DNA of 64,000 bases from a bacterium (GTDB lineage Bacteria > Zhuqueibacterota > Zhuqueibacteria > Residuimicrobiales > Krinioviventaceae): positions 96,001 to 160,000 of the forward strand of contig CAXXMD010000003.1 in NCBI GenBank assembly GCA_963675755.2, read 5' to 3'. The translations under genes and the position numbers were made by a program. The notes beneath the pieces were generated by a model. The model did not search any database, was not told the DNA's origin, and worked only from the letters and a program-made list of their open reading frames with translations. Shown piece by piece: positions 22,018 to 45,728 of this stretch. Numbering within the stretch: position 1 is the first letter of the stretch; every line of letters starts with the position of its first letter.

Positions 22018-22040
22018 AACTTTTTCCCTCACAAATCACA

Positions 22041-22736
22041 TTAAAACCGATAGCTCAACAAATCCATTTTAACACCAAGGCCGCCGCAGGCATCCTGATA
22101 ATAGCCTAGCTGTCCTACAGAGATTTCAGGAGAATAATCAGTCCCGTTCAACTCTTTGTGATCTTGGGGTTTTGCTTTTTTATTATACATCGCCATTGAA
22201 CAAATCGGTGGCAACAAAAAACCAGCTGTGATACTCAAAGTTGAATTACCGGGATTTGAATCAGTTTCCAATGCTAAAACACCAATTGCTATTGCTGTTC
22301 CTAATAGAGACCCCAACAATGCACGCTTGTAAGATCCGTTTTGCCCAAATGCTTCACCTATACCATATGATCCCAATGAAACTCCCATAGCAAACCCTGC
22401 ATAAGTAGACAGCACTCCTCCGGCCATCGAACCGTCAAGAATATTAAAACCTATTAATGCTCCTGCAAATAAACCCAAACAACCCGAAACTTCAGCTATA
22501 ATAAATTGTCCAGCCAAATAATAACCATCATAAATATCTGTATTTGTTGCTACAGCAGATTCACGATCATTTAATCGCGGAGATTGATATTGACACAGAT
22601 TTACCGACCTCTCGCCCTGGTAATTGTATGGCACCAACCGGGGAGTGTTATCGGATTTGCTTTCGGGTTCCTGTGCGAAAACCGTAGAAGAGAATACCAT
22701 GCAGATAGTGACAAGAAACAAAAAGCTGTTTTTCAA
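22041..22736 (-). CDS. Unknown envelope protein, paralog 6
   Basis: TTG start after AAGGAGA; AQEPESKSDNTPRLVPYNYQG; C-terminus ISVGQLGYYQDACGGLGVKMDLLSYRF. Confidence 0.85.
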   Translation of the reverse strand: MKNSFLFLVTICMVFSSTVFAQEPESKSDNTPRLVPYNYQGERSVNLCQYQSPRLNDRESAVATNTDIYDGYYLAGQFIIAEVSGCLGLFAGALIGFNILDGSMAGGVLSTYAGFAMGVSLGSYGIGEAFGQNGSYKRALLGSLLGTAIAIGVLALETDSNPGNSTLSITAGFLLPPICSMAMYNKKAKPQDHKELNGTDYSPEISVGQLGYYQDACGGLGVKMDLLSYRF

Positions 22737-22821
22737 AATATGTCTCCTTGATAAAATTATAGCCCAAACAGGATTTTCCCCATGCGTTTTAAATTAAATT
22801 TTTTAGAGGTAATGTATGTAT

Positions 22822-22847
22822 GTACGAATGGATATACTCAATGTTCC
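22822..22847 (-). promoter_or_regulatory. Putative ECF sigma promoter GGAAC-N17-GTAC
   Basis: Conserved boxes and spacing in three upstream regions, with a divergent spacer in one. Confidence 0.6.
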
Positions 22848-22973
22848 ATTTTGAAACCGCGCAAATCCTGCTAAAGACCGGGAGCGTTTGTAAGAGTTCA
22901 GCACTAAAAAAATCAAACATTCAATCCTATCATCCTTAAATCCGATAAATCATAATTCAGACAGATAACCCGA

Positions 22974-23681
22974 TCAAAACCGGTAACTTAACAAATCCAA
23001 TTTAATGCCAGGGCCGCCGCATGCATCCTGATAATATCCGAGCTGCCCGACAGAGATTTCAGGTGAAAAACCAGTCTCTTTGAATCTATTGGGATATTTG
23101 GATTTAAATTTTCTGTTATAATTTATCATGGAACAGATTGTGGGCATAAGAAGCAATGCTGGACCTGTAAATACCGGAGTCTTGCTGTCTTTTTCTATTG
23201 CTGCTATGGTCATTCCTATACATGCCCCAAATAAAGAACCTTCAAGTGCTCGCCAATATGTACCATTTTGTACCTGTTTATAACCTGTTCCGTGTACTCC
23301 AAAAGCAACCCCTAATGTATACGACGTATACCCTATAACGATTGCAGCAGCAAGTCCATCCCATCCTTCTCTCCTGAACAAAGCTGGCCCCACGAGTACA
23401 CCGGTTGTCATCCCAAGCCCACCTATAAACTCTGCCATTAAAAATTGTTTAACAAAATATCCGAACGTAGCGCCTTGACCGGTTTCTGATAAAGGTTCGA
23501 CAGAACCCTGTAAATTCAATGGATCGGGATAACACCAATACAAGTTGACAGTACTTTTACCCTGAAAATTATAGGGAACAAGCCGGGGAGCATAATCAGA
23601 TTTGCTTTCGGGTTCCTGTGCAAAAACAGTAGAAGAGAATACCGTGCAGATAGTGACAAGAATCAAAAAGCTTTTTTTCAA
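22974..23681 (-). CDS. Unknown envelope protein, paralog 5
   Basis: TTG start at 23681 after AAGGAGA; same N- and C-terminal modules as paralogs 4 and 6. Confidence 0.85.
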   Translation of the reverse strand: MKKSFLILVTICTVFSSTVFAQEPESKSDYAPRLVPYNFQGKSTVNLYWCYPDPLNLQGSVEPLSETGQGATFGYFVKQFLMAEFIGGLGMTTGVLVGPALFRREGWDGLAAAIVIGYTSYTLGVAFGVHGTGYKQVQNGTYWRALEGSLFGACIGMTIAAIEKDSKTPVFTGPALLLMPTICSMINYNRKFKSKYPNRFKETGFSPEISVGQLGYYQDACGGPGIKLDLLSYRF

Positions 23682-23767
23682 AATATGTCTCCTTGATAAA
23701 ATTATAGCCCAAACAGGATTTTTCCCCATGCGTTTTAAATTAAATTTTTTAGCGGTAATGTATGTAT

Positions 23768-23793
23768 GTACGAATGGATATACTCAATGTTCC
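23768..23793 (-). promoter_or_regulatory. Putative ECF sigma promoter GGAAC-N17-GTAC
   Basis: Identical to the 22822-22847 copy. Confidence 0.6.
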
Positions 23794-23835
23794 ATTTTGA
23801 AACCGCGCAAATCCTACCGAGGGCTGGGAGACAGA

Positions 23836-24564
23836 TTAGAACCTGCAACTCAACAAATACATTTTAACACCGAGGCCGCCGCAGGCATCCTGATAATAGC
23901 CAAGCTGCCCCACAGAGATTTCAGGAGAATAATCAGTTTCTTTGAATCTATTGGGATATTTGGGCTCAAGTTTCATGTTATACGCTGCCATAGAACAAAT
24001 CGTCGGTAGAAAAACTATAGATGCAAATATAATATTGGTTTCCTTTCGATTATAATTGTCAAATGGCCTAAATGATTCAGAATGTGCAGCAATGATCCCC
24101 AAACCCATTCCTGCTGTCGCCCCAATCAACGACCATTCGTACGAGCCCTTCTTTTTTGCTTTTCTGCCCATTCTGAAAACACCGTTGGCAACCCCAAAGG
24201 AATAACTTGCATATATAATATACAATCCTGTATCAATAGCGTGCTCCTCATCGGCTGCTCCAATCAAAGCTACACCCAAAGTACCCGCCAGAATCCACAT
24301 GAATCCGCTTGTTTCAGCCACAACAAACTGCAATATATAATAATCAAGAGGAGAAATTGTTTCCCAGGATACGGAATTCTGTTCAATTCTGTAAAAATCC
24401 GGCAAATCCGTAATATCTTTGTATAAATTAAAGGTGTTTTTTCCCTGGTAATTGTACGGAACCAGCCGGGGAGTATTATCTGATTTGCTTTCGGGTTCCT
24501 GTGTGTAAACCGTTGAAAAGAATGCCATAAAGATACTGACAAGAAACAAAAAGCTATTTTTCAA
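23836..24564 (-). CDS. Unknown envelope protein, paralog 4
   Basis: TTG start after AAGGAGA; QEPESKSDNTPRLVPYNYQG; C-terminus GYYQDACGGLGVKMYLLSCRF. Confidence 0.85.
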   Translation of the reverse strand: MKNSFLFLVSIFMAFFSTVYTQEPESKSDNTPRLVPYNYQGKNTFNLYKDITDLPDFYRIEQNSVSWETISPLDYYILQFVVAETSGFMWILAGTLGVALIGAADEEHAIDTGLYIIYASYSFGVANGVFRMGRKAKKKGSYEWSLIGATAGMGLGIIAAHSESFRPFDNYNRKETNIIFASIVFLPTICSMAAYNMKLEPKYPNRFKETDYSPEISVGQLGYYQDACGGLGVKMYLLSCRF

Positions 24565-24647
24565 AATATGTCTCCTTGATAGAATTATCCTGGCAGGAAC
24601 AAGCCCCTTTGCGATTTAAATTCATTTTTTAGCAATATTGTATGTAT

Positions 24648-24673
24648 GTACTATTGTACCAGCCCGATGTTCC
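24648..24673 (-). promoter_or_regulatory. Putative ECF sigma promoter GGAAC-N17-GTAC
   Basis: Boxes and flanks conserved; 9 of 17 spacer bases differ from the other two copies. Confidence 0.6.
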
Positions 24674-24798
24674 ATTTTGAAACCGTGCAAGTCCTGCTAA
24701 AGGCCGGGAGCGTTTGTAAGAGTTCAGCACTAAAAAAAACAGCATTCAAACCTTTCATTCTTAAATCCTATGAATCATAATTCAGACAGGAAACCCGA

Positions 24799-25494
24799 TC
24801 AAAACCTGCAACTCAACAAATCCATTTTAATACCGAGGCCGCCGCAGGCATCCTGATAATAGCCAAGCTGTCCTGTAGATATTTCTGGTCCATGGGATTT
24901 AGAGTTGCCTTTATTATACAATATCATTGAAAGCGGAATCGGCAGTAGAAACGTCAATGCCGCCCCCACATTAGCGACTTCTGAACCTTGTCCCGCAATA
25001 ATGGCGCCCAGCCCAATACTGGTTCCAATTGCAGATCCCATCAAAGCCTGTAAAAACGGCAAGTCCTTATTATTGATGATACCAACCACATGCACACCTG
25101 TTGCAACTCCCAGAGCATATCCCGCATAAGCAAATCCAACCAGTTTTACAAAATCACTGCCCTCTTCATCATCACTGAATTCAACCCCGCTAAAGTTCAC
25201 TCCTGCTGCTGTCCCCAACGCTCCTCCCAATCCTGCCATTAAAAACTGTGATATTAAATACCCGCCTTCTGGTTTATTTTTTTTATTTAGGGATGTATTA
25301 TCAGCATTTCTGAACAAACTCGAATTCGCATGATAGCGGTTCAAATCCACTCCCATATCCTTTTGCTGAATATAGGGAATAATTCGGGCTGCATTTTCAA
25401 ATGTAATGCCTAAACCCGGGTCGGTCGCATACACTGCCTGCGTAAATAAAAGACAAACCATTAACACACTGCCAAAGCCAAATATCTTTTTCAT
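24799..25494 (-). CDS. Unknown envelope protein, paralog 3
   Basis: Signal peptide; QFLMAG..G; C-terminus EISTGQLGYYQDACGGLGIKMDLLSCRF. Confidence 0.85.
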   Translation of the reverse strand: MKKIFGFGSVLMVCLLFTQAVYATDPGLGITFENAARIIPYIQQKDMGVDLNRYHANSSLFRNADNTSLNKKNKPEGGYLISQFLMAGLGGALGTAAGVNFSGVEFSDDEEGSDFVKLVGFAYAGYALGVATGVHVVGIINNKDLPFLQALMGSAIGTSIGLGAIIAGQGSEVANVGAALTFLLPIPLSMILYNKGNSKSHGPEISTGQLGYYQDACGGLGIKMDLLSCRF

Positions 25495-25581
25495 TCAAGC
25501 ACCCCATTTCTGTTTATAAACCCGGATTTATCCCCGGGAACCTAAAAAAAATCTATACCGATTACAAAGCAATTCCGACTA

Positions 25582-26295
25582 TTAAAATCTACAGCTCAAT
25601 AAATCCATTTTAACGCCTGGGCCGCCGCATGCATCCAGATAGCATCCAAACTGACCGGCAGATATTTCCACAGAGCGGGTATTATTCGCACTTGCAGAAT
25701 CCCGTTTATTATAAAGTATTATGGAACATACCGGCGGCAGTAAAACAAGAGACGAAAGACTAATTACAGCCTGGGGCTTGTTATTATCCAATTGAGAGGT
25801 AATGGCTATTGCCAATCCTACTCCAATAAAAGATCCTTTTAGCGCCTTACCAAAAGAACCGGAGACATTTGCATAACTCCCAACCTTGTGAACACCAAAA
25901 GCCGAACCCAATGCATACCCGGCATAAGCACCGATCACGACAAATTCAATTCCATCCATATCTTCACTTTGACTATCCACAAAAGGTATGCCGCAAATCC
26001 CCCCAACAAAGGACAGGATTATACCATTAATCTCTGCAGATACAAATTGCTTGATATGCAATTTGGAATTTATATTTTTTTGTTCATTTTGATTTATGTC
26101 AGATAACGCAATTCCGGAATACTGTCCTGTGCTCATACGAAAAGCCGATAGGTTATCCCCGCTGTAATGTAAAGACACAGGGAACGATTTTACATGGGTC
26201 TGGTTAGAATTGTGCTGACCGGCAAGGATTTTTGTGGCAGACAACAGCGCCAAAATTAATAGTAACTCTAAATGTATTAATCGAAATTTCAACAT
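25582..26295 (-). CDS. Unknown envelope protein, paralog 2
   Basis: Signal peptide; QFVSAEING; C-terminus EISAGQFGCYLDACGGPGVKMDLLSCRF. Confidence 0.85.
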   Translation of the reverse strand: MLKFRLIHLELLLILALLSATKILAGQHNSNQTHVKSFPVSLHYSGDNLSAFRMSTGQYSGIALSDINQNEQKNINSKLHIKQFVSAEINGIILSFVGGICGIPFVDSQSEDMDGIEFVVIGAYAGYALGSAFGVHKVGSYANVSGSFGKALKGSFIGVGLAIAITSQLDNNKPQAVISLSSLVLLPPVCSIILYNKRDSASANNTRSVEISAGQFGCYLDACGGPGVKMDLLSCRF

Positions 26296-26336
26296 CTCCC
26301 CTCTCAAATATTAATAATCGCAATAGATAATCCGCT

Positions 26337-27092
26337 TTAAAATCGCCAGCTAAAAACATTCACAATAACAGTATTCCCCCTCTTTTCATCATGAGAATAG
26401 TTGAACGCATTCATGGACAATCCTACATTTCCGCCATCAATGCTCACAACAGAATTCAGATCATTCATATGACTGGTAATATTATAACTTGCGATAGCGC
26501 CAATGGTTGGCAAAAAAAGAGTCAAAACCGAAATACTTTTATCATCATTAAATTCTTCATCACTTTCATCATAAGCATTTTCAACCATTAATCCCACCCC
26601 TGTTCCAATTAGCGCACTGGTCAACGTCCACCAAAAAGAGCCGTATCTATTCGCTTTTTCACCAACCCGATACACACCATCCACAACGCCATATGTATAA
26701 CTAGCAGATACAACATAATATCCGGTTTCAGACATATCCCAGTCATTCCCCACGTGAACAGCATATACAACCAGGGCACTTGTAAGCAGGCATATAAGCC
26801 CTTCGGTTTCTGCCATTAGAAACTGTAAACCATAATATTGTATAGAATTAAATACACTTAGATCATGAGCTCTATATCCATCTGTTACTGAATTATAAAC
26901 CAGAAAATCCAGATCCAATGCCTCTTTCCCCTGGTAATTAAAAGGAACCAAAACCGGACTATCGTCTAGTGTATTAAATTGACTGGTCATTTCTGTTGTT
27001 TTTTTATTCCTCTGTAAAAGGTTTTGCGGAAAAACGGTTGAACAAAAAATCAGTGCTAATAAAATCCCGGCCCGTAGTGATCTGAGATACAT
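26337..27092 (-). CDS. Unknown envelope protein, paralog 1 (most diverged)
   Basis: LVPFNYQG, QFLMAETEG, GSFWW, LPTIG..SYN; C-terminus VIVNVFSWRF. Confidence 0.8.
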   Translation of the reverse strand: MYLRSLRAGILLALIFCSTVFPQNLLQRNKKTTEMTSQFNTLDDSPVLVPFNYQGKEALDLDFLVYNSVTDGYRAHDLSVFNSIQYYGLQFLMAETEGLICLLTSALVVYAVHVGNDWDMSETGYYVVSASYTYGVVDGVYRVGEKANRYGSFWWTLTSALIGTGVGLMVENAYDESDEEFNDDKSISVLTLFLPTIGAIASYNITSHMNDLNSVVSIDGGNVGLSMNAFNYSHDEKRGNTVIVNVFSWRF

Positions 27093-30957: not shown

Positions 30958-31051
30958 AATCCGGTCCCTACAATTTATAAGCATTCTTTTATTGTAAAGA
31001 TTTTTTGATTGATTTTCAAGTTCTTTTAAAACAAGGATCAAAGAAAAAATC

Positions 31052-31087
31052 AAAAAAAAAGCACTGACAAACAATCATGTCAGTGCT
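31052..31087 (-). terminator. Intrinsic terminator of the VOC gene
   Basis: Minus strand AGCACTGACA-tgattgtt-TGTCAGTGCT followed by a long T run. Confidence 0.8.
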
Positions 31088-31115
31088 CAAATATTGTTGT
31101 ATTTAAAACCCTTTT

Positions 31116-31535
31116 CTAGGCTTCCGCTTCATAGTTAACCATCCAGATAATTCCATATTTATCTACCAGTTGACCAAACATTGCGCCCCAAAATGTCTTA
31201 CCCCAGGGCATTACCACATTCGCACCTTCGGACAGGTTATTAAACCAGGCTTCTCCTTTTTTCTCATCATCTATCTGAATTATTATTTGCACATTATTGC
31301 CGTTTTCCAGTTTGCTTCCCGGCATTATGTCTGCTCCCATTAAAAGGGCTTTACCATCAATTTTCAATGAAGCGTGCATAATTTTATCAAGATACTCGGG
31401 CGGCATTTCTGCTTCCACAGGTGTTCCTTTAGCCGTCATGGTTTCCAGCTCAGCACCCAATGCGTTTTTATAAAAAGTCATAGCATCCAAACAGTTTCCA
31501 TCAAATGACAAGTATGGATTTATAGAGATAAACAT
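31116..31535 (-). CDS. VOC/PhnB-like (glyoxalase superfamily) protein
   Basis: INPYLSFDGNC..AMTFY, IMHASL, TFWGAMFGQLVDKYGIIWMVN. Confidence 0.9.
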   Translation of the reverse strand: MFISINPYLSFDGNCLDAMTFYKNALGAELETMTAKGTPVEAEMPPEYLDKIMHASLKIDGKALLMGADIMPGSKLENGNNVQIIIQIDDEKKGEAWFNNLSEGANVVMPWGKTFWGAMFGQLVDKYGIIWMVNYEAEA

Positions 31536-31720
31536 ATTTTCCTCCTACAATTTTGGGATTATAAACGCATAAAACAAATCAAAGGGCTTGATTATTCTTG
31601 ATACAAGAAAAAAACAAACATTTTACGCATATCTGATAAATGAATCGATATGTAAAAATTTAATTGTTTTTTTATAATAAAATTGGTTATATTTACCACA
31701 ATAATAATAATCAGAGAATT

Positions 31721-31927
31721 ATGAACACACAAAATCCCACATATTCAATGTCTTTACCGTCAGCATTAGCTAACGGCCGGGAATCTGTGTGCCTGTGGAA
31801 AAATCTGAATATTATATCCTCATTAGTAAACATACCGGGTGTGATTGTACAACGCCTGGTGGTCGTCGTCCCTGTTATTCTTCTTAACCTCTTGTCTGTG
31901 GGTGTGGTGGTTCGCGTCAGCGAATAA
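31721..31927 (+). CDS. Branched-chain amino acid attenuator leader peptide 1 (68 aa, Val-biased)
   Basis: Last 41 codons contain 13 Val, 7 Leu, 5 Ile; homologous to 33969-34178; directly upstream of ilvB. Confidence 0.8.
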   Translation: MNTQNPTYSMSLPSALANGRESVCLWKNLNIISSLVNIPGVIVQRLVVVVPVILLNLLSVGVVVRVSE

Positions 31928-32026
31928 CAACCCGGTGCAAGAGGAAATCTCGTAATACATCCAAACATTTAACACAACGCTCTCAACCCATCCTCTGCAC
32001 CGTAAGCACAGGTATGTTTAGTTTTG
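31888..32026 (+). promoter_or_regulatory. Attenuator RNA 1 (1:2 and 2:3 pairings, weak 3:4 terminator)
   Basis: CCTCTTG (31888) / CAAGAGG; CGGTGCAAGAGGA (31933) / TCCTCTGCACCG (31991); ACC..GGT hairpin with an interrupted U tract. Confidence 0.7.
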
Positions 32027-32081
32027 AATTATTCCAGGCATGTTCGAATTGGCTGAATAACTCGTAAACGAAAGGATAGTT

Positions 32082-33803
32082 ATGACTGGTGCAGAAATGA
32101 TTTTACACGCTTTAAAACAGGAAGGCGTAAACGCGGTTTTCGGTTACCCGGGTGCCTCGGTAATCGATATTTTCGATTTATTGTATGATGGAGATATCCC
32201 GTTTTATCTGGTAAGACATGAACAGGGTGCGGTACACGCAGCAGACGGCTTTGCCCGTGCATCCGGCAAAGTGGGAGTTTGTCTGGCCACTTCCGGACCC
32301 GGTGCTACCAATCTGGTAACCGGTCTGGCTACAGCTCACATGGATTCAATCCCCATGGTTGCCATTACCGGCCAGGTAGCCACCCACCTGATCGGGAATG
32401 ATGCGTTTCAGGAAGTCGATATGGTGGGTATCAGCAGACCCATTACCAAGCACAATTATCTGGTAAATTCAGTTGAGGAATTGCCCATAATTTTAAAACA
32501 GGCCTTTCATATTGCACGCAGCGGCAGGCCCGGTCCGGTATTAATTGACATTCCCAAAGATCTTCAACGAATGGAATGTACCGTTCCCTATCCGGACCAT
32601 ATAGAAATCTCCAGCTACAAGCCAACCTTAAAAGGCCATACGCAGCAGCTCAAAAAGGCGATAAATTTAATCGAGCGCAGTAAAAAACCGGTTATTTACG
32701 CAGGGGGTGGTGTTATTGCCAGCGAAGCAAGCAGCGAACTTCGAACCTTTGCAGAAAAGATCAATGCTCCCGTCACAACGACATTGATGGGATTAGGGAT
32801 TTACGATGAAACCGCACCCAATGCATTAAAAATGCTGGGGATGCACGGTACCGAATATGCCAACTACTCTATTCAGGCATGCGATTTATTGATTGCAGTT
32901 GGTGCCCGTTTTGATGACAGGGTTACCGGCAAAGTTGATAAATTTGCACCCAACGCCAAAATCATTCATATTGATATCGATCCCACAACCATCCGTAAAA
33001 ACGTTCAGGTCAATATACCCATCGTTGGAGATGTTAAACATGTTCTGGCAGATCTGATAGAAATGATTGAGCAACAAGATAAAGCAGAATGGATTTCACA
33101 GGTGCGGGAATGGAAAGAAAAGCACCCCCTGACATTTAAAAACGATGGTTTTATTCAACCACAATTTGTGATCGAAAAAATCGCAGAAATGACAAACCAT
33201 AAAGCAATTATTACCACAGAAGTCGGCCAGAACCAGATGTGGACAGCACAGTTTTTCAATTTTAAACATCCGCGTACCTTTTTATCATCCGGCGGCCTGG
33301 GAACGATGGGCTATGGATTCCCCGCAGCTATTGGCGCTCAAATTGCCCACCCGGATAAAGTGGTGATTGATATAGCTGGCGACGGTAGCATCCAGATGAA
33401 TATACAGGAACTGGCAACCGCAGTTTTGTATCAAATACCAGTCAAAATCGTTATACTTAATAATCGTTCCCTGGGCATGGTAAGACAATGGCAGGCTATA
33501 TTCTATGACAGGCGTTTTGCATCAACCTGTCTGCGCCGCAATGCCCAATGTCCACCGCAATGTGAACAGACAGAAGAATTTTGTCCTACAGAGTATGTAC
33601 CCAATTTCGTCAAACTGGCCGAAGCTTATGGTGCAACCGGTCTTTATGCGGACAAAGTTGAGGATGTTGTGCCCACTTTGGAAAAAATGTTGAATACACC
33701 GGGTCCGGTTGTTGTTGAATTCAAGATAGAAGCGGAAGAAAATGTTTATCCCATGGTGCCGGCAGGCGCCCCGATTCATGAAATGATAAGAGGCATGGCA
33801 TAA
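32082..33803 (+). CDS. ilvB: Acetohydroxyacid synthase large subunit, copy 1
   Basis: FGYPG, RHEQGA, TSGPGATN, GDGS..MNIQEL..NN ThDP motif. Confidence 0.97.
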   Translation: MTGAEMILHALKQEGVNAVFGYPGASVIDIFDLLYDGDIPFYLVRHEQGAVHAADGFARASGKVGVCLATSGPGATNLVTGLATAHMDSIPMVAITGQVATHLIGNDAFQEVDMVGISRPITKHNYLVNSVEELPIILKQAFHIARSGRPGPVLIDIPKDLQRMECTVPYPDHIEISSYKPTLKGHTQQLKKAINLIERSKKPVIYAGGGVIASEASSELRTFAEKINAPVTTTLMGLGIYDETAPNALKMLGMHGTEYANYSIQACDLLIAVGARFDDRVTGKVDKFAPNAKIIHIDIDPTTIRKNVQVNIPIVGDVKHVLADLIEMIEQQDKAEWISQVREWKEKHPLTFKNDGFIQPQFVIEKIAEMTNHKAIITTEVGQNQMWTAQFFNFKHPRTFLSSGGLGTMGYGFPAAIGAQIAHPDKVVIDIAGDGSIQMNIQELATAVLYQIPVKIVILNNRSLGMVRQWQAIFYDRRFASTCLRRNAQCPPQCEQTEEFCPTEYVPNFVKLAEAYGATGLYADKVEDVVPTLEKMLNTPGPVVVEFKIEAEENVYPMVPAGAPIHEMIRGMA

Positions 33804-33906
33804 AAAGCCAGAGAATTAAAAAATAATTGATAAAACTTAAATATTCTACAATCTTGAAATTATTGACGTTATTTATTTAAAAAACAAGACATAAAATATT
33901 TTTTTA

Positions 33907-33934
33907 TTGACTTTATCAAATAATTAGTTATATT
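33907..33934 (+). promoter_or_regulatory. Candidate sigma70-type promoter for leader 2
   Basis: TTGACT-N16-TATATT; the -10 context AATT(A/G)GTTATATTTA recurs upstream of leader 1 (near 31681-31695). Confidence 0.45.
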
Positions 33935-33968
33935 TATTAATTCAATAGTATAATATTTAGAAAAATTC

Positions 33969-34178
33969 ATGAGCACACATACGGCCACAAAATCATATCC
34001 TTTTTCAAACCCGTTAGCAATCGCTTACGGTAGGGGAGCTGTGTGCATACGTAATACGAATCTGAATATTCTACCATCCTTGTTAGTAAACTTACCGGGT
34101 GTGATTGTGCGACGCCTGGTGGTCGTGCCCATCATTATTCTAAACCTCTTGCTAGTGCTAATTCGCCTAAGCGAATAA
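33969..34178 (+). CDS. Branched-chain amino acid attenuator leader peptide 2 (69 aa, Leu-biased)
   Basis: Last 39 codons contain 12 Leu (5 CTA), 7 Val, 6 Ile. Confidence 0.82.
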   Translation: MSTHTATKSYPFSNPLAIAYGRGAVCIRNTNLNILPSLLVNLPGVIVRRLVVVPIIILNLLLVLIRLSE

Positions 34179-34284
34179 GATACATGGTGCAAGAGGAAGC
34201 CAAAAAAATTTAATACACTACACAAAGCCTAAACGACCCGGAAAACGGGAAAACCCTCTGCACCATGAGACAAGGTGTTTTTTT
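34145..34284 (+). promoter_or_regulatory. Attenuator RNA 2 with 1:2, 2:3 and 3:4 structures
   Basis: CCTCTTGC (34145) / GCAAGAGG; CATGGTGCAAGAGG (34183) / CCTCTGCACCATG (34255); terminator GCACC-atgagacaa-GGTGT followed by a T run. Confidence 0.8.
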
Positions 34285-34347
34285 AAATTTGATGAGGTAT
34301 TTTTTTTTGAGCAAAAAACAATACATACAACAAAAAAAAGGATAGTT

Positions 34348-36069
34348 ATGACTGGTGCAGAAATGATCGTTCACGCTTTAAAACAAGAAGGTGTACGTGC
34401 GTTATTCGGTTACCCGGGTGGTTCGGTGATCGATATCTTTGATGTATTGTACAAATCAGATCTTCCATTTTATCTTGTGCGGCATGAACAGGGTGCAGTC
34501 CACGCTGCAGACGGTTTTGCACGTGCATCCGGTGAAGTGGGTGTCTGTCTTGCAACATCAGGGCCGGGGGCTACAAACCTGGTAACAGGTTTAGCTACTG
34601 CTCATATGGACTCTATTCCGATGGTAGCAATAACAGGACAAGTTCATACTCATTTGATTGGTAACGATGCATTTCAAGAAGTCGACATTGTTGGCATCAG
34701 CAGACCCATTACAAAACACAATTATCTGGTTAGCTCGGTAGATGAATTGCCTAAAATTTTAAAACAAGCATTTTATCTGGCCCGCACGGGCAGACCTGGT
34801 CCGGTTTTGGTGGATATCCCCAAAGATATTCAACAAACCGAGTGCAAGGTCCCCTATCCGGATAAAGTTGAAATTCCAAGCTATAAACCCACAATGAAGG
34901 GCCATTTGCAGCAGCTCAAAAAAGTTGCCAAAGCCATTGAACAAAGTAAACAACCCGTTATTTACGCCGGTGGTGGTGTTATTGCAAGCGAAGCAAGCAA
35001 TGAACTGCGTACCTTTGCTAAAAAGATCAATGCTCCCGTTACTACAACGCTGATGGGACTCGGAATTTATGACGAGACTGATGATGATGCGTTAAAAATG
35101 CTGGGTATGCACGGTACGGAATATGCCAATTACTCTATTCAGGCATGCGATTTGTTGATTGCTGTTGGTGCTCGCTTTGATGACAGAGTTACCGGCAAAG
35201 TCGATAAATTCGCAGCCAATGCTACAATTATTCATATCGATATCGACCCTACAACCATTCGTAAAAACGTTCAGGTCAACATTCCTATCGTTGGTGATAT
35301 TAAACATGTGCTTACTGATCTGAACGAGCTCATTGAACAGCAGGATAAAAAAGAATGGATTTCTCAGGTTCATGAATGGAAAGAAAAACATCCGCTGGTT
35401 TACAAAAACGATGGTCACATTCAACCACAATATATCATTGAAAAACTGGCTGAAATGACTGATCACAATGCGGTTATCTCTACCGAAGTGGGTCAAAACC
35501 AGATGTGGGCGGCACAGTTTTACAATTATAAAAATCCGCGTACCTTTTTATCATCTGGCGGTTTGGGAACCATGGGTTACGGATTCCCCGCAGCCATTGG
35601 CGCCCAGGTTGCACAGCCGGACAAGGTCGTTATTGATATTGCGGGTGACGGCAGCATCCAGATGAACATTCAGGAACTGGCCACCGCGGTATTGTATCAA
35701 ATACCCGTCAAGATTGTAATCCTCAACAATCGCTCACTTGGCATGGTGAGACAATGGCAGGGTATATTCTATGACAGACGCTTTTCATCTACGTGTTTGC
35801 GGCGTAATGCCATGTGTCCACCGCAATGTGAACAAACAGAGGAGTTCTGCCCGGAAGAATACGTTCCCAATTTCGTCAAACTGGCAGAAGCCTATGGAGC
35901 AACCGGTCTTTATGCGGATAAAGTTGAGGATGTAGTACCAACTTTGGAAAAAATGCTGAATACTCCGGGCCCGGTTGTTGTTGAATTCAAGATAGAAGCT
36001 GAAGAAAATGTTTACCCCATGGTGCCGGCTGGTGCCCCAATCCATGAAATGATAAGAGGAATGGCATAA
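34348..36069 (+). CDS. ilvB: Acetohydroxyacid synthase large subunit, copy 2
   Basis: Same motifs and same length (573 aa) as copy 1; stop overlaps the ilvN start. Confidence 0.97.
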   Translation: MTGAEMIVHALKQEGVRALFGYPGGSVIDIFDVLYKSDLPFYLVRHEQGAVHAADGFARASGEVGVCLATSGPGATNLVTGLATAHMDSIPMVAITGQVHTHLIGNDAFQEVDIVGISRPITKHNYLVSSVDELPKILKQAFYLARTGRPGPVLVDIPKDIQQTECKVPYPDKVEIPSYKPTMKGHLQQLKKVAKAIEQSKQPVIYAGGGVIASEASNELRTFAKKINAPVTTTLMGLGIYDETDDDALKMLGMHGTEYANYSIQACDLLIAVGARFDDRVTGKVDKFAANATIIHIDIDPTTIRKNVQVNIPIVGDIKHVLTDLNELIEQQDKKEWISQVHEWKEKHPLVYKNDGHIQPQYIIEKLAEMTDHNAVISTEVGQNQMWAAQFYNYKNPRTFLSSGGLGTMGYGFPAAIGAQVAQPDKVVIDIAGDGSIQMNIQELATAVLYQIPVKIVILNNRSLGMVRQWQGIFYDRRFSSTCLRRNAMCPPQCEQTEEFCPEEYVPNFVKLAEAYGATGLYADKVEDVVPTLEKMLNTPGPVVVEFKIEAEENVYPMVPAGAPIHEMIRGMA

Positions 36070-36557
36070 TGAGACATATAATTAATTTAGAAGTCGAAAA
36101 CAATCCGGGTGTACTGGCAAGGATATCAGGACTTTTCAGCGCGCGCGGATTCAACATCGAGGCCATTTCGGTTGGAAAACCCGAAACCAACATGACCTCG
36201 CGTATGACCCTCGTAGTTAGAGGAAATGATGAAGTAATTGAACAAGTCAGCAAACAACTCAACAAACTTATTGATGTAATACGTGTAACCGATGTTACCA
36301 GCAATTATTACGTCAGTCGTGATCTGGTATTGGTCAAAGTTACGTGTCCACCGGCCAAACGTACCGAAATCTCTCAACTGATCGGTATTTTTGACGCCAA
36401 GGTTGTTGACATTAGCAACAAAACCATGACACTGGAACTGGCAGGCAGTGAAGCCAAAGTAAACGCATTTATTGAAACTATTCGTCCTTATGGAGTAAAA
36501 GAACTGGCCCGCTCCGGAACCATTGCCATGTTGCGGGATTCAAACGGAAAAATCTAA
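36069..36557 (+). CDS. ilvN: Acetohydroxyacid synthase small (regulatory, ACT) subunit
   Basis: VENNPGVLARISGLFSARGFNI, QLNKLIDVIRV, ELARSG. Confidence 0.96.
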   Translation: MRHIINLEVENNPGVLARISGLFSARGFNIEAISVGKPETNMTSRMTLVVRGNDEVIEQVSKQLNKLIDVIRVTDVTSNYYVSRDLVLVKVTCPPAKRTEISQLIGIFDAKVVDISNKTMTLELAGSEAKVNAFIETIRPYGVKELARSGTIAMLRDSNGKI

Positions 36558-36575
36558 CAAAAACTATAAACTTAA

Positions 36576-37580
<1,005 letters not shown>

Positions 37581-37591
37581 TAGAGGTTATT

Positions 37592-39133
37592 ATGGATAAA
37601 AATCGCGTAGTGGTATTCGACACAACCTTGCGCGATGGTGAACAATCACCGGGTGCAAGTTTGGATGTACCCGACAAGGTAGCCATTGCACATCAATTAG
37701 CACGTTTAAAAGTAGATGTAATCGAGGCGGGTTTCCCTGTATCATCGGAAGCCCAGTTTAATGCGGTGAAATTGATTGCTCATGAAGTAAAAGGACCGGT
37801 AATTGCGGCTCTTGCCCGATGTGTCGATCTGGATCTGGATAAAGCGGGCGAAGCCTTGAAAGGAGCAGAAAAACCGCGTATTCATACGTTTGTTGCAACT
37901 TCAAAAATACATTTGGAAAAGAAATTCCGTAAATCCGAAGACGAAATTCTGGAAATGGCTGTTGCCGGAGTAAAACGGGCAAGAAAATACTGCGATGACG
38001 TAGAGTTCTCTCCCGAAGATTCTGCACGTACCGGTAAAGAATTCCTGTTTCGCATTGTTGAAGCAGCTATCAATGCCGGTGCTACAACCATCAACATTCC
38101 GGATACGGTGGGATATTCGAATCCCGAAGAATTCGGTAATTTGATCAATCAGATCATGAACACGGTACCCAATGTAGACAAGGCTATTATCAGCGTTCAC
38201 TGCCACAACGACTTGGGTTTGGCAGTTGCCAATACCCTGGCAGGTGTTCGTAATGGCGCACGTCAAATTGAAGTAACAGTAAACGGTATTGGTGAACGCG
38301 CGGGCAATGCTTCTCTCGAAGAAGTAGTTATGGCATTAAAAACCCGTCATAACTATTATAATATCAATACCAACATAAACAGTCAAGAGATCATTAACAC
38401 CAGTCGTATGGTTAGTAACCTGACAGGTATTATGGTACAGCCCAACAAGGCAATTGTAGGTGCAAACGCGTTTGCTCACGAATCCGGCATTCATCAGGAT
38501 GCCATGATCAAAGATGCCAGCACCTACGAGATCATGACTCCCCACGAAATCGGTCTTGATGCAAGTAAAATTGTATTGGGTCGTCATTCCGGTCGTCATG
38601 GTTTGAAACAGCGTTTGATAGAACTGGGTTATCATCTGAACCCGGAAGAACTGAACCATGTTTATGAAAGATTTCTTGAAATTGCTGATAAAAAGAAGGA
38701 AGTCTTTGACGAAGATCTCATTGCACTGGTTGGTGATGAATCTCAGGATTATGAAGATGCTTATCATCTCGACTATTTTCATATACTGAGTGGCAACAAG
38801 GCTATTCCCACAGCTACTGTTGGATTGAAACACAAAGATGAAATAATTCAGGATGCTTCCGTTGGTGATGGCCCCATTGACGCAGCTTATAAAGCTATAG
38901 ACAAGATAGTAAACGTTCCCCTGAAACTGGCAGAATATTCTTTACGCGGTGTAACCGGTGGTAAAGAAGCAATGGGTGAAGTGGTTGTACGTGTAATCCA
39001 GGACGGGAAAAAATTTCTGGGTCGCGGTGCCAGCACGGATGTCATTGAAGCAAGTATCAGGGCCTATCTTAATGCTGTGAACAAAAGCATGCATATGCAT
39101 TCAAAAACCACGGAAGAAAAAGCAGAATTATAG
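37592..39133 (+). CDS. leuA: 2-isopropylmalate synthase
   Basis: [33 protein letters not shown]; C-terminal regulatory domain. Confidence 0.96.
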
Positions 39134-39141
39134 GACATACA

Positions 39142-40230
39142 ATGAAAAAAGACAACTATACAATAGCAGTCCTGCCGGGAGATGGTATTGGCCCCGAAGT
39201 AGTGGCAGAGGCTGTCAAAGTTCTGGAAACCATCGCAACAACCAGTAATTTTACCATTACTGCAAATTATGCCGATGTAGGTGGTGTTGCCATCGATAAA
39301 TATGACAATCCCCTGCCAGAAGAAACACTGAACACATGTAAACAAGCAGATGCTGTTTTGCTGGGCGCTATTGGTGCGCCCCAATACGACAATCTGCCCT
39401 CAGATAAACGTCCCGAACGCGGCCTGTTGGGTCTGCGCGCAGGTCTGGGCCTTTATGCAAATCTACGTCCGGCCAAGGTTTATCCCAGTCTTGTAGATGC
39501 ATCAAGCCTGAAACCCGAGCTGGTTTCAGGTATTGACATTCTCATTGTAAGGGAATTAACCGGTGGTATTTATTTCGGCCAACCACGCGGATTCGACGAT
39601 AAAGACAATGGCCGTGGATTCAATACCATGGTTTACACAAAACACGAAGTTGAGCGTATTGCCAAAATCGCTTTTGACGCGGCACAAAAACGTGGTAAAA
39701 AAGTAATGTCTGTTGACAAGGCAAACGTGCTTGAAGTATCACAGTTCTGGCGGGAACAGGTTATCAACACAGCCAAATCGTATCCCGATGTTGAACTTGA
39801 TCACATGTATGTTGACAATTGCGCAATGCAGCTTGTGCGCTGGCCCAAACAATTTGATGTTATTGTTACAGGAAATCTGTTTGGAGATATTCTCAGCGAC
39901 GAAGCATCCATGCTAACAGGGTCACTGGGCATGCTTCCTTCTGCCAGTATGGGTGATGGAACAGCAATGTATGAACCTGTGCACGGTTCAGCACCTGATA
40001 TTGCAGGAAAAAGCATCGCGAATCCCATTGCAACCATAGCATCAGTAGCCATGATGTTACGCCATTCAATGGATCGCGCTGCAGAAGCAGATGCGCTGGA
40101 AAAGGCCATCGATGAAATTCTTAAAGATGGCTACCGCACCAAAGATATTGCCCTTGAAGGTGAAGACACGATCTCTACCACAGAAATGGGAAATCTGGTT
40201 GCGGAAAAGGTAAAATCTTTGCTAAATTAA
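39142..40230 (+). CDS. leuB: 3-isopropylmalate dehydrogenase
   Basis: [44 protein letters not shown]. Confidence 0.97.
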
Positions 40231-40255
40231 CAAATATGAATAATGGAGGCATCAT

Positions 40256-41854
40256 ATGCCGGAACAACTGATTATATATGATACAACACTACGTGATGGT
40301 TCACAAAGTGAAGGAATCTCGTTCTCGGCACTGGACAAGATCATGATCGCCCAACGTCTTGATGACTTTGGCGTAAATTATATTGAAGGGGGTTGGCCAG
40401 GCTCTAACCCCAAAGATATGGAATTCTTTACCCGTGCCGTTGATGTTGAATGGAAAAATGCTAAAATTGCGGCATTCGGCAGTACCCGACGTGTGAAATC
40501 CAAAGTGTGGGAAGACGCCAATATAAAATTACTGCTGGAAGCCAAAACACCGGTAGTAACCATTTTTGGCAAAACCTGGGACCTGCATGTAACCGAAGGG
40601 TTACGTACTACTTTGGATATTAACCTTGAATTAATTCGGGATTCTATTGCCTATTTAAAAGATCAGGGTAAAGAGGTGGTATATGATGCTGAACATTTTT
40701 TCGACGGATACAAAGACAATCCCGAATACGCGCTAAAAACGCTCGAGGTTGCCAAAGATGCTGGTGCGGACTGCCTGGTGTTGTGTGACACCAATGGCGG
40801 TACCCTGCCCAGCGAAGTAAAATCCATTATCGACGCGGTTTATGCAACCAATCTAAACATTCCTCTCGGAATGCATGCGCATAACGACGGTGATGTTGCT
40901 GTTGCAAACAGCATTGTTGCGCTGGAAAACAAGATAATGCACATTCAGGGCACAATGAATGGCTATGGTGAACGCTGCGGAAACGCCAATTTGTGCACCA
41001 TCATTGCAAATGCCGCGTTAAAAATGAACATAGGAACATCAGAAAAACTCAAACTCAATGAACTGACACAATTATCACGCTATGTCAGCGAAATGGCCAA
41101 TCTCCCCCATCGTGAAGAGATGGCTTTTGTAGGTAACAGTGCTTTTGCTCACAAAGGCGGCATCCATGTTAGCGCGATACGACGTAATCGTCGTACGTAC
41201 GAACATATCGATCCGGCAACCATTGGAAACCGTCAGCGAGTGCTCATTTCTGACCAATCCGGTCAAAGTAATATTCTGCAAAAAGCGGAAGAAATGGGCC
41301 TTGACCTGACAAGCAATAAAGAAGCAGTACATGACATTGTCAATCGCCTCAAAGATATGGAGCATCTCGGCTATCAGTATGAAGGTGCAGACGGCTCTTT
41401 TGAGATTTTGATTAACAAATCAACCGGCGAGCACAAGGAATTCTTTGACCTTGAAAGTGCACGTGTGATTATTGACAAGCACGAAAAACTCGGCAAACTT
41501 TACTCAGAAGCCATGGTAAAAATGAGAGTTGGCGGTAAAGTTGAACATACCGCAGCCGAAGGCAATGGTCCGATTGATGCATTAGACAATGCCATGCGTA
41601 AAGCATTGGAACCTTTTTATCCATCACTGAAAAAGATAAAATTAATAGATTACAAGGTGCGTGTATTAAACAGCACCCAGGGAACAGCAGCCAAAGTCCG
41701 TGTATATATTGAATCGCAGGCTGATGATATGATCTGGGGAACCGTAGGTGTTTCTGAAAATATCATCGAGGCAAGCTGGCAGGCGCTGGTTGACCGCATC
41801 AACTATATGCTGTTAAAGCTGGAAAAGAACAATCTAAATGGTGCAGCAGACTGA
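40256..41854 (+). CDS. cimA: Citramalate synthase
   Basis: YDTTLRDGSQSEG, IEGGWPGSNPKD, YDAEHFFDGY, GERCGNAN, AHKGGIH. Confidence 0.9.
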   Translation: MPEQLIIYDTTLRDGSQSEGISFSALDKIMIAQRLDDFGVNYIEGGWPGSNPKDMEFFTRAVDVEWKNAKIAAFGSTRRVKSKVWEDANIKLLLEAKTPVVTIFGKTWDLHVTEGLRTTLDINLELIRDSIAYLKDQGKEVVYDAEHFFDGYKDNPEYALKTLEVAKDAGADCLVLCDTNGGTLPSEVKSIIDAVYATNLNIPLGMHAHNDGDVAVANSIVALENKIMHIQGTMNGYGERCGNANLCTIIANAALKMNIGTSEKLKLNELTQLSRYVSEMANLPHREEMAFVGNSAFAHKGGIHVSAIRRNRRTYEHIDPATIGNRQRVLISDQSGQSNILQKAEEMGLDLTSNKEAVHDIVNRLKDMEHLGYQYEGADGSFEILINKSTGEHKEFFDLESARVIIDKHEKLGKLYSEAMVKMRVGGKVEHTAAEGNGPIDALDNAMRKALEPFYPSLKKIKLIDYKVRVLNSTQGTAAKVRVYIESQADDMIWGTVGVSENIIEASWQALVDRINYMLLKLEKNNLNGAAD

Positions 41855-43071
41855 TGCAAACAAAAAAAATAAAAATTGAAAAAGGATCCATTACCACACC
41901 CAAAGGCTTTCGAGCTGCAGGTGTTCATGCGCGTATTAAACAAAAAGGCCCGGATCTGGCACTTATCATGAGCGATACCCCCGCAACACTTGGGGCCATG
42001 TTTACAACCAATAAAGTTCCGGCACATTGTATCAATATCGATCGTGCCAAAGCTGTCTCGGGTCAGGGACAGGTTTTAGTCATTAACAGCGGCAATGCCA
42101 ACGCCTGTACCGGTGAGCAGGGCCGGCTTGATGCGGAAGAAATGATAGATCGTACCGCCAAAGGTACCAGTACTGATCCCGATCTGGTTTACGTTGCCAA
42201 TACGGGTATCATTGGCGAAAAGCTTCCCATGGATTTGCTGCGCAAAGGAATTGACAAAGCATGCTGTAGTCTTACTGACGACACAGGCGGAGTAGACGCG
42301 GCATGGGCCATTATGACAACAGATACCTATCCCAAACATTTATCTGTCACGTTTAAATTGGATGAAAAGCCCGTTACCATTGGCGTCATTGCCAAAGGCA
42401 GCGGAATGATTAATCCCAATATGGCAACCATGATCTGTGTATTCACAACAGACGCTGCAATCACCCCTGAAATGCTGCAACAGGCATTAAAAGAAACGGT
42501 TGATGTTTCACTAAACATGCTGACCGTAGATGGTGAAATGAGCACCAATGACAGTGTCTTTATATTGGCCAACGGTGCGGCCGAAAACCCCGTCATATCC
42601 GAAAAAGATAAAAATTACCAAATATTTCAAAAAGCACTCGAAGCCCTGGGCATAGAGATCACCAAACTAATCGCACTGGATGGTGAAGGTGCAACCAAAC
42701 TTGTTATTGTAACCGTTGATGGTGCAAGAACGTATGAAGATGCGGTCAAGGCATCCAACTCTATTGCCAACTCGAACCTTGTTAAAACTGCAATCTTTGG
42801 CAGAGATCCCAACTGGGGCCGTGTAGTACAGGCCATTGGAGCCAGCGGTGCAGAAGTGGATCTTGATTCGTTCAGCATCCAGTTTGCGGGTATTTCAGTA
42901 GCTGAAAACGGGGGCTCGATTGATTACGATTCCCTTGAAATGCACGTTGCCCTGCAGAAAAAAGAGGTGCACATTCACGCTGATCTGGGAGTAGGTAAAG
43001 AAAGCGCTACCGTTTATACCTGCGACCTCACTCATGACTATATCAGTATTAACGCGGAATATCACACATAG
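41854..43071 (+). CDS. argJ: Ornithine acetyltransferase / N-acetylglutamate synthase
   Basis: NSGNANACTG, AKGSGMINPNMATM (autocleavage), STND, DGEGATK, DPNWGR, CDLT. Confidence 0.95.
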   Translation: MQTKKIKIEKGSITTPKGFRAAGVHARIKQKGPDLALIMSDTPATLGAMFTTNKVPAHCINIDRAKAVSGQGQVLVINSGNANACTGEQGRLDAEEMIDRTAKGTSTDPDLVYVANTGIIGEKLPMDLLRKGIDKACCSLTDDTGGVDAAWAIMTTDTYPKHLSVTFKLDEKPVTIGVIAKGSGMINPNMATMICVFTTDAAITPEMLQQALKETVDVSLNMLTVDGEMSTNDSVFILANGAAENPVISEKDKNYQIFQKALEALGIEITKLIALDGEGATKLVIVTVDGARTYEDAVKASNSIANSNLVKTAIFGRDPNWGRVVQAIGASGAEVDLDSFSIQFAGISVAENGGSIDYDSLEMHVALQKKEVHIHADLGVGKESATVYTCDLTHDYISINAEYHT

Positions 43072-43081
43072 GAGAATCATT

Positions 43082-43927
43082 GTGCTGTTTAGCAGAAAGA
43101 TAGCATTTATTGGCGCCGGTAATATGGGCGAAGCGCTCCTGGGTGGATTGTTAAAATCCAACCTGACCAACCCGGAAAACATTATTGCAACCGATGTATT
43201 GCAGGAACGACTGGACATTATTTCAGAAAAATGGCAGGTTGAAACAACCACAGACAACCTTAAAGCAATCGACTTTGCGGATGTTATTGTATTGTGTGTC
43301 AAGCCACAAACCATTGCGGATGTTTTAACAAATATCAAAGCAAACGTACGCTCAGAACAACTTATTATCTCTATTGTTGCCGGTATTACCACCAAAACTA
43401 TAGACTATTTTATCAACAAAAACAATCCGGTTGTACGCGCCATGCCCAACATCCCCGCTGTTGTGGATGAAGGTGCGGCAGGTATCTGCATGGGTGAACA
43501 TACCCAGGCTATTCATAAGGAAATAGCTCTGGCTATACTGGGTTCCGTGGGTACGGTTGAAATTGTTACCGAAGCACAAATGGATGTTGTTACCGGTTTG
43601 AGCGGCAGCGGTCCCGCTTATATCTATATGGTTATAGAAGCATTGACTGACGGCGGTGTAATGATGGGGCTGCCCCGCAACGTGGCCACCAAACTTGCCA
43701 CACAAACCGTTCTGGGCTCGGCCAAACTGGTTAAAGAAACCAACATTCACCCGGCAATTCTCAGAGACCAGGTTACTACTCCGGGTGGCACAACCATCAA
43801 AGCCATTCAGGGGCTGGAAGAAAACGGACTTCGCCCTATGCTGATCAAAGCGGTAGAGATTGCTTCTCTACGTTCTCAAGAATTATCGCATTTCCTGGAA
43901 ATGCAAAACACAAACAAGAAAAAATAA
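43082..43927 (+). CDS. proC: Pyrroline-5-carboxylate reductase
   Basis: GTG start after AGGAG; FIGAGNMG, RAMPN, GLSGSGPAY, VTTPGGTT. Confidence 0.95.
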   Translation: MLFSRKIAFIGAGNMGEALLGGLLKSNLTNPENIIATDVLQERLDIISEKWQVETTTDNLKAIDFADVIVLCVKPQTIADVLTNIKANVRSEQLIISIVAGITTKTIDYFINKNNPVVRAMPNIPAVVDEGAAGICMGEHTQAIHKEIALAILGSVGTVEIVTEAQMDVVTGLSGSGPAYIYMVIEALTDGGVMMGLPRNVATKLATQTVLGSAKLVKETNIHPAILRDQVTTPGGTTIKAIQGLEENGLRPMLIKAVEIASLRSQELSHFLEMQNTNKKK

Positions 43928-43928
43928 C

Positions 43929-45721: not shown

Positions 45722-45728
45722 GATAAAG

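Follow-up and report, generated by a model that had tools for sequence, protein, structure and literature searches.

Why should a bacterium carry two closely similar leader open reading frames (ORFs), both crowded with branched-chain amino-acid codons, in front of two neighbouring copies of ilvB, the gene for the large subunit of acetolactate synthase (acetohydroxyacid synthase, AHAS)? The locus that raises this question lies on the plus strand of a 64,000-nucleotide (nt) stretch of DNA, referred to here as the window (contig CAXXMD010000003.1; G000:C3:96001-160000), where two modules follow each other in tandem, leader 1-ilvB1 and then leader 2 with the ilvB2 operon. Our answer, which we would credit with a probability of about 60%, is that both copies are ribosome-mediated (leader-peptide) attenuators controlling ilvB, that they belong to a family conserved across the order, and that copy 1 has been recoded towards valine.

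Aligned over 571 columns, the two leader regions have a mean column identity of 80%, in line with the initial annotation, which had described two homologous leader ORFs, each 5′ of an ilvB paralogue. Its codon counts for the last 40 codons were also reproduced, with V13/L7/I5 in copy 1 and V7/L12/I6 in copy 2, the latter including five CTA. Ile, Leu and Val codons make up 25 of these 40 in both copies, compared with a genome share of 0.219 (p = 4e-8). CTA is the rarest Leu codon of the genome (4.3% of Leu codons in 1221 long ORFs) and accounts for 5 of the 13 Leu codons of copy 2 (binomial p = 1.4e-4). In copy 1 it is GTG/GTC that are enriched, with 10 of 14 Val codons compared with 27% of Val codons genome-wide (p = 7e-4); since they also supply 7 of the 8 Val codons of copy 2, this bias is common to both copies. 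Regulatory codons that are rare increase the sensitivity of attenuation, according to the excerpted text of PMC1183508. The tRNA genes, one per Leu and per Val isoacceptor, give no further hint on specificity.

The features of the two copies, including segments 1, 2 and 3, whose alternative pairings (1:2 and 2:3) form the core of the argument, are the following, in window positions:

31664..31693, plus strand: putative promoter of leader 1 (TTGTTT, 18 nt, TATATT), with a weak -35 hexamer, picked out by eye and unflagged by the promoter scan
31721..31927, plus strand: leader ORF 1, 68 codons, with a Val-dominated C-terminal part (..LVVVVPVILLNLLSVGVVVRVSE)
31830..31863, plus strand: predicted hairpin inside ORF 1, 5′ of segment 1 (ACCGGGUG../..CGCCUGGU), common to copy 2
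31888..31894, plus strand: segment 1 of copy 1, CCTCTTG, codons N-L-L
31934..31944, plus strand: segment 2 of copy 1, GGTGCAAGAGG, starting 6 nt past the leader stop
31992..32001, plus strand: segment 3 of copy 1, CCTCTGCACC
31989..32026, plus strand: imperfect hairpin with segment 3 and the U-rich tract UUUAGUUUU, candidate weak terminator of copy 1
32082..33803, plus strand: ilvB1, acetolactate synthase large subunit (TIGR00118, 844 bits), with no small-subunit gene 3′ of it
33907..33934, plus strand: promoter-like site 5′ of leader 2 (TTGACT, 16 nt, TATATT; 10/12 matches), from the promoter scan
33969..34178, plus strand: leader ORF 2, 69 codons, with a Leu/Ile-type control window holding four CTA (..PIIILNLLLVLIRLSE)
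34092..34122, plus strand: predicted hairpin inside ORF 2, 5′ of segment 1, homologue of the copy 1 hairpin
34145..34151, plus strand: segment 1 of copy 2
34186..34196, plus strand: segment 2 of copy 2, starting 7 nt past the leader stop
34197..34254, plus strand: spacer between segments 2 and 3 of copy 2, G-poor and A/C-rich (C 0.24, G 0.14)
34255..34264, plus strand: segment 3 of copy 2
34260..34284, plus strand: GCACC/GGUGU hairpin followed by U7 (34278-34284), candidate weak intrinsic terminator of copy 2
34348..41854, plus strand: ilvB2-ilvN-ilvC-leuA-leuB-cimA, continuing into argJ and further arg/pro genes

The GTTATATTTA contained in the putative promoter of leader 1 is also present in copy 2, as the alignment of the leader regions makes clear.

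The strongest single comparative result is a test of the reading frame over 32 copies of the element. In every one of them, the frame that reads segment 1 as x-Leu-Leu is open across 46-118 codons, and Ile, Leu and Val fill 11-19 of its last 25 codons, versus 0-8 in the other two frames. The leader stop ends 5-11 nt 5′ of the GGUG of segment 2 in all 32 copies; in the other frames, stop codons lie anywhere between -251 and +30. An ATG-started leader ORF of 32-87 codons is found in 29 of the 32 copies.

The pairing segments are equally well defined. Complementarity of segments 1:2 and 2:3, which had been claimed at first reading, is present in both copies at the positions listed above, and helix 2:3 indeed has a closing C-G pair in copy 1 and a CAUG/CAUG extension in copy 2 (duplexes of -18.6 vs -21.8 kcal/mol). 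Within the 6.48-Mb genome, the exact segment 1...segment 2 pattern has two occurrences, both at this locus, and the reversed pattern has none. Across the family, helix 1:2 is paired in 264 of 264 alignment cells, compared with 39-63% in slid controls, and contains one double compensatory change (CCUUUUGC/GCAAAAGG in G022). Helix 2:3, counted on an alignment that was fitted to 1:2 only, is paired in 80.7% of 398 cells vs 45-53% when slid, its lower half being undercounted because one extra C in a sequence group shifts the alignment. Seven of its pairs have changed on both sides, with columns 71:170 reading GC8/UA7/CG3/UG2/GU1; helix 2:3 covaries. In 23 of the 24 sequences its duplexes have energies between -10 and -24 kcal/mol, G020 being unclear.

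The initial annotation had proposed folding both leaders, and once segment 1 was masked, 2:3 became the predicted fold in copies 1 and 2 alike. The calculated energies are -28.2 kcal/mol for the 1:2 hairpin and -17.2 kcal/mol for the 2:3 structure of copy 1, and -21.8 and -25.7 kcal/mol, respectively, for those of copy 2. The copies are thus predicted to differ in set-point, with 1:2 stronger than 2:3 in copy 1 and the order reversed in copy 2. Both copies also have a predicted 10-11-bp hairpin within the ORF, about 25 nt 5′ of segment 1, and the fold of 31700-31893, which holds the internal hairpin of ORF 1, is more stable than expected (z = -2.45). We suggest that this hairpin could serve as a pause site coupling ribosome and polymerase in such long leaders. 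A CACACA/UGUGUG stem around a CCGU..ACGG hairpin is predicted in both copies as well.

A search of relatives for the same leaders had likewise been suggested, and it extended the element well beyond the window's genome. Covariance model R1, which was built from 23 sequences, has matches in 30 of the 125 genomes of the class, all within the window's order, where the element is found in 30 of 43 genomes with the window's genome counted (16/18, 7/14, 1/1, 4/8 and 1/1 genomes of families f1 to f5, plus the window's own, G000). Outside the order, R1 had no match in 124 genomes, 82 of them from the class and 42 from outside it, the latter taken from a phylum sample of 151 genomes. All R1 matches with inspected flanks sit 5′ of ilvB. 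Within the family, 18 of 19 genomes have IlvB orthologues and nearly all have an Ile/Leu/Val-rich ORF ending ..I-I-N-L-L-L about 150-190 nt 5′ of ilvB; there are two misses, G007, in which ilvB begins at the contig end, and G002, in which no ilvB was found with the IlvB query used. In one further genome (G010:C4:73502-77098), an intact leader precedes an ilvB gene that is broken into two frames (282 and about 335 amino acids), by a frameshift or an assembly error.

Other searches added no further members. When the entire 6.48-Mb genome was searched at the DNA level with copy 2, copy 1 was the sole match (E = 5e-31), and a search for relatives with IlvB2 returned only IlvB proteins of other phyla at 55-64% identity and nothing on leaders. 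Domain searches made to place the lineage gave 43 sulfatase matches, no SusD match and no PF07596 match, the last being equally absent from the control genomes. Rfam gave no match at E ≤ 1 for window positions 31000-35000 among 4227 families, which include the Leu, Thr, Trp, His and Phe leaders, ilvB-related motifs and the T-box. A literature search, on which we place little weight, found no description of such an attenuator in a comparable lineage. The sole exact-pattern match in the class that fell outside the order (G048) does not adjoin ilvB and was set aside as chance, as were the pattern matches in at least 122 metagenome stretches, since none of the 80 retrieved matched R1 at E ≤ 0.001, so that no homologues were gained.

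Comparison with the sister species (G001) shows which parts of the element are constrained. While the third positions of ilvB are 80-84% identical and intergenic regions 73-85%, the C-terminal parts of the leaders are identical throughout (31856-31927, 72/72; 34104-34178, 75/75), and the stretches from the leader stop to segment 3 and from segment 3 to ilvB are 95-97% and 95-97.5% identical, respectively. The N-terminal parts behave differently in the two leaders, at 133/135 (98.5%) in leader 2 (33969-34103) and 119/135 (88%, near neutral) in leader 1 (31721-31855); conservation in copy 2 seems to extend beyond the C-terminal control region. Between genera, the N-terminal parts have diverged, and segment 1 is kept at the nucleotide level, synonymous sites included.

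These data also bear on another explanation, in which the ORFs encode real small hydrophobic (membrane) proteins and the complementary segments are incidental or contribute to mRNA stability. ORFs of 32-87 codons from ATG are long for leader peptides, their C-termini are hydrophobic, and the 98.5% DNA identity of the leader 2 N-terminal part in two species is what a protein might show. However, a conserved protein is hard to reconcile with N-terminal parts that diverge between genera while segment 1 keeps even its synonymous sites, with a stop-to-segment 2 distance held at 5-11 nt throughout, with a helix 2:3 that lies outside the ORF and covaries, with the lack of any protein-family match for the leader ORFs, and with a position that is always directly 5′ of ilvB. 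We consider the small-protein explanation very improbable. Judged from its sequence, the element is a real, conserved leader of the attenuator type.

From the sequences with their frame, spacing, alternative pairings, covariation and distribution, all of which can be read directly, we infer that the leader is translated and that termination is the readout, as follows. The long leader ORF would place its terminal Ile/Leu/Val codons over segment 1, and segment 2 would pair alternatively with segment 1 or segment 3. When charged tRNAs are plentiful, the ribosome would reach the stop codon and mask the 5′ half of segment 2; when the leader is untranslated, 1:2 would form. In either case segment 3 would be free for a weak hairpin followed by a U-rich tract, and expression would fall. 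A ribosome stalled on the Ile/Leu/Val codons in or around segment 1 would instead leave segment 2 free, allowing 2:3 to form and transcription to proceed into ilvB. Because copy 1 has a Val-dominated control window and the stronger 1:2, ilvB1 would probably be held off more tightly and released mainly by valine shortage.

The least clear-cut part of this scheme is the terminator. The GCACC/GGUGU hairpin with a U tract, proposed by the initial annotation as the 3:4 element, can be seen in copy 2 together with its U7; it has only 5 bp and a 9-nt loop, and a strict scan did not flag it. The equivalent pairing is weaker in copy 1, as had been said, and an alternative there is an imperfect 9-bp hairpin (31989-32016) that takes in the whole of segment 3 and is followed by UUUAGUUUU. 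In a more lenient test, a hairpin starting in segment 3 and followed by a U-rich tract was found in 16 of the 32 copies, both window copies among them, vs 2.3 expected from shuffled sequences. Premature termination at a weak intrinsic terminator is, from these features, the likeliest readout here. We also considered, by eye, whether the CCUC of segment 3 might sequester the ribosome-binding site of ilvB, and did not adopt the idea, since a GAGG-type site near an ilvB start is to be expected of any Shine-Dalgarno sequence.

Several observations weigh against the attenuator reading or parts of it and have to be set beside the evidence above. As for translation, no Shine-Dalgarno sequence is evident by eye at either leader start, and three of the 32 copies (G003, G008 and G015) have no ATG in the open frame. 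As for structure and termination, the fold predicted for the entire leader of copy 1 is unremarkable (z = -0.38); the strict scan flagged no 3:4 terminator in either copy, its sole terminator-like site (34117-34134) lying inside leader ORF 2; the region from segment 3 onward reaches z ≤ -2 in only 3 of the 32 copies, the other 29 being no better than shuffles; and 16 of the 32 copies lack even the lenient hairpin with a U-rich tract, in a genome in which canonical terminators are clear elsewhere (252 sense vs 118 antisense over 2931 gene ends). As for the codons, the Val/Leu/Ile contrast between the two copies alone is not significant (chi-square p = 0.20, Fisher p = 0.063), and because the GUG/GGU-rich tail of copy 1 also builds the inner stem of 1:2, by pairing with ACAACCC 5′ of segment 2, its Val codons could have been selected for structure and not for sensing. 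A cautionary case comes from the ilvB leader of Streptomyces coelicolor, in which candidate regulatory codons were changed and regulation was unaffected, as stated in the excerpted text of PMC1262725.

The lack of a hairpin with a U-rich tract in half of the copies favours a variant in which the sensor and the 1:2/2:3 switch are the same and Rho or another factor terminates transcription on the untranslated leader when 2:3 fails to form, loading on the spacer between segments 2 and 3. The spacer (31945-31991 and 34197-34254 in the window) has 2-15% G and is A/C-rich in all 32 homologues, even in GC-richer genera, with mean values of C 0.28 and G 0.08 and a length of 37-67 nt. That it is G-poor in 32 of 32 copies, with C at 0.36-0.41 and G at 0.08-0.10 in the higher-GC genera, fits such a role, as do the rho gene of this genome (697 bits, above cut-off) and the Rho-dependent readout proposed for terminator-less actinobacterial cys leader peptides in the excerpted text of PMC1262725. 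On the other hand, the spacer is short for Rho loading, a linker under selection to remain unpaired would be just as likely to have this composition, the segment 3-overlapping hairpins with U-rich tracts in 16 of 32 copies far exceed the 2.3 expected, and copy 2 has a clean U7. We consider termination by Rho or another factor unlikely, though still a serious alternative, and retain the weak intrinsic terminator as the likeliest readout.

How the pair arose can be followed in some detail. Scans of the class and of the phylum sample with R1 found two copies in the window's genus only. In the IlvB tree, ilvB1 and ilvB2 of the window's species and its sister form one clade (100/100) in which each paralogue is monophyletic, and the duplication is therefore placed after the split from the nearest genus and before the split between the two species; the stem branches are 0.12 for ilvB1 and 0.036 for ilvB2. 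Leader and ilvB were thus duplicated together, in tandem, within the genus. An independent tandem ilvB-ilvB pair, with one leader only and a 37-nt gap, occurs in G004 (G004:C16:328356-333708).

The initial annotation held that the two duplicates were retuned to different amino acids and so subfunctionalised, copy 1 to Val and copy 2 to Leu. To judge this we have used the control window, defined as the five codons 5′ of segment 1 through the stop, of the same 32 leaders. All have V0-2, L2-6 and I0-4 except copy 1 of the window's genus, which with V6/L4/I1 is the only Val-dominated leader. Copy 2 (V1/L6/I4) is of the common type and stands out only by its four CTA codons, of which other leaders have 0-2. 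Since every other leader has V0-2, copy 1 must be the one recoded towards Val and copy 2 has kept the ancestral state. Half of the proposal therefore stands, in that copy 1 is Val-dominated and derived, and its tail is 100% kept in the sister species; the other half falls, because the Leu/Ile window of copy 2 is the ancestral type of the order. The retuning of copy 1 to Val is supported as a feature of the sequence, whose polarity is directly visible; that copy 1 would respond to valine as a single amino acid is what we infer from its codons.

Whether this recoding would alter sensing at all may be asked, since the copies could be functionally equivalent, with the Val tail of copy 1 reflecting selection for a longer 1:2, or drift after the duplication, and ilvB1 simply providing enzyme dosage. 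The non-significant codon contrast (p = 0.20 and 0.063) agrees with this, and so do the pairing of the GUG/GGU tail with ACAACCC, which goes with the greater 1:2 stability of copy 1 (-28.2 vs -21.8 kcal/mol), the Leu codons in segment 1 and the Val codons upstream that both copies have kept, and the G004 duplication, which proceeded without a second leader. It is harder to account in this way for more than two Val codons in a control window in copy 1 alone of 32 leaders, or for a tail perfectly kept in the sister species against a neutral identity of about 80%; moreover, with the stop 6 nt 5′ of segment 2, a ribosome stalled at these codons would geometrically leave segment 2 free. We therefore regard functional equivalence as somewhat unlikely, and altered sensing by copy 1 as the better account. 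A fuller version of the latter, which we offer tentatively, is that the recoding of about six control codons, together with a tighter 1:2, was all it took to move specificity from Leu/Ile to Val, so that two AHAS isozymes came under separate single-amino-acid control, and that half of the family's members may do without a canonical terminator, their readout depending, for example, on Rho at the G-poor spacer.

Beyond the switch itself, the layout of the locus suggests how the two modules may be connected to each other and to their surroundings. Since the promoter/terminator scan found no terminator-like site between ilvB1 and leader 2, ilvB1 transcripts may enter attenuator 2, which also has a promoter-like site of its own (33907-33934). 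Downstream, with no evident interruption, the ilv-leu operon continues (41854-46925) with argJ, a gene for pyrroline-5-carboxylate reductase, genes resembling argC, argB and argD, and one for a GNAT acetyltransferase. Given this continuity, an attenuator for branched-chain amino acids may also stand in front of arginine and proline genes.

The initial annotation had taken the operon behind copy 2 for the whole pathway, which it is not. A second cluster, with an Ile/Leu/Val leader of its own, contains ilvD, leuC and a third AHAS paralogue, whose first 200 residues are 53% identical. The ilvD gene lies outside the window at G000:C3:2475693-2477318, and 5′ of its cluster is the third Ile/Leu/Val-rich leader ORF (G000:C3:2475385-2475549; 54 codons, the last 25 with V4/L7/I6), which model R1 does not match. 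The sister species has 98% identity over this third leader region; with the other genera that were searched, it could not be aligned beyond the region of the ilvD start. After the third ORF come CUGACCUC...GAGGUCAG and a second GGUCAG repeat.

Elsewhere in the window, on the minus strand, there is an array of seven tandem paralogous ORFs of 229-251 amino acids (21343-27092). Three of them were scanned and had no Pfam match, and one, taken for translation, begins like a signal peptide and has a hydrophobic middle part rich in Gly, with only 'hypothetical protein' clusters in the Atlas.

Leader-peptide attenuation of ilv/leu genes is textbook biology. The enterobacterial branched-chain attenuators, those of ivbL-ilvBN, ilvL-ilvGMEDA and leuL-leuABCD, control separate AHAS operons through leaders of different composition, the ivbL leader being rich in Val and Leu and the leu leader using rare CUA codons. 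The leaders described here resemble the enterobacterial ones in their clustered Ile/Leu/Val codons, in the mutually exclusive 1:2, 2:3 and 3:4 pairings and in a stop codon from which the ribosome can cover segment 2. In contrast, their ORFs are of much greater length (68-69 codons, with a range of 32-87 in the order), their terminator is weak or unrecognisable, they match no Rfam leader family, and the pair consists of recent homologous duplicates that are 80% identical, and not of unrelated leaders.

Two other groups of leaders invite comparison. The ilvB leaders of Corynebacterium, Mycobacterium and Streptomyces, as described in the excerpted text of PMC1262725, likewise place an ORF with runs of Ile, Val and Leu codons directly 5′ of ilvB and have hairpins, with a mechanism that is partly unresolved there; in those actinobacteria, that text indicates, the Ile/Leu/Val codons overlap the terminator hairpin, whereas in the present element the overlap is with segment 1 of a four-segment switch. 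The actinobacterial leaders also belong to another lineage and to another sequence family than the element here. The leucine-rich attenuator peptide of the Staphylococcus aureus ilv-leu operon is similar as a cis-acting leader whose codon make-up sets the response to one branched-chain amino acid (PMC5794164, in excerpt). In the same excerpted account (PMC5794164), however, it is a single leader working alongside CodY, and a duplicated pair with diverged codons does not appear.

Taken together, what is new at this locus is an uncatalogued leader family, without an Rfam match, that extends across an order of a little-studied and mostly uncultivated phylum; leader ORFs that are unusually long and whose stop is kept at a very tightly fixed distance from segment 2; and a recent tandem duplicate in which divergence is confined to the control codons and to hairpin strength. 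Model R1 lets annotators find these leaders. The leader pair is a natural experiment that could show how the specificity and the set-point of an attenuator evolve, and if the Val specificity of copy 1 is true, the pair would have an independent counterpart in Escherichia coli, whose AHAS isozyme operons are attenuated separately.

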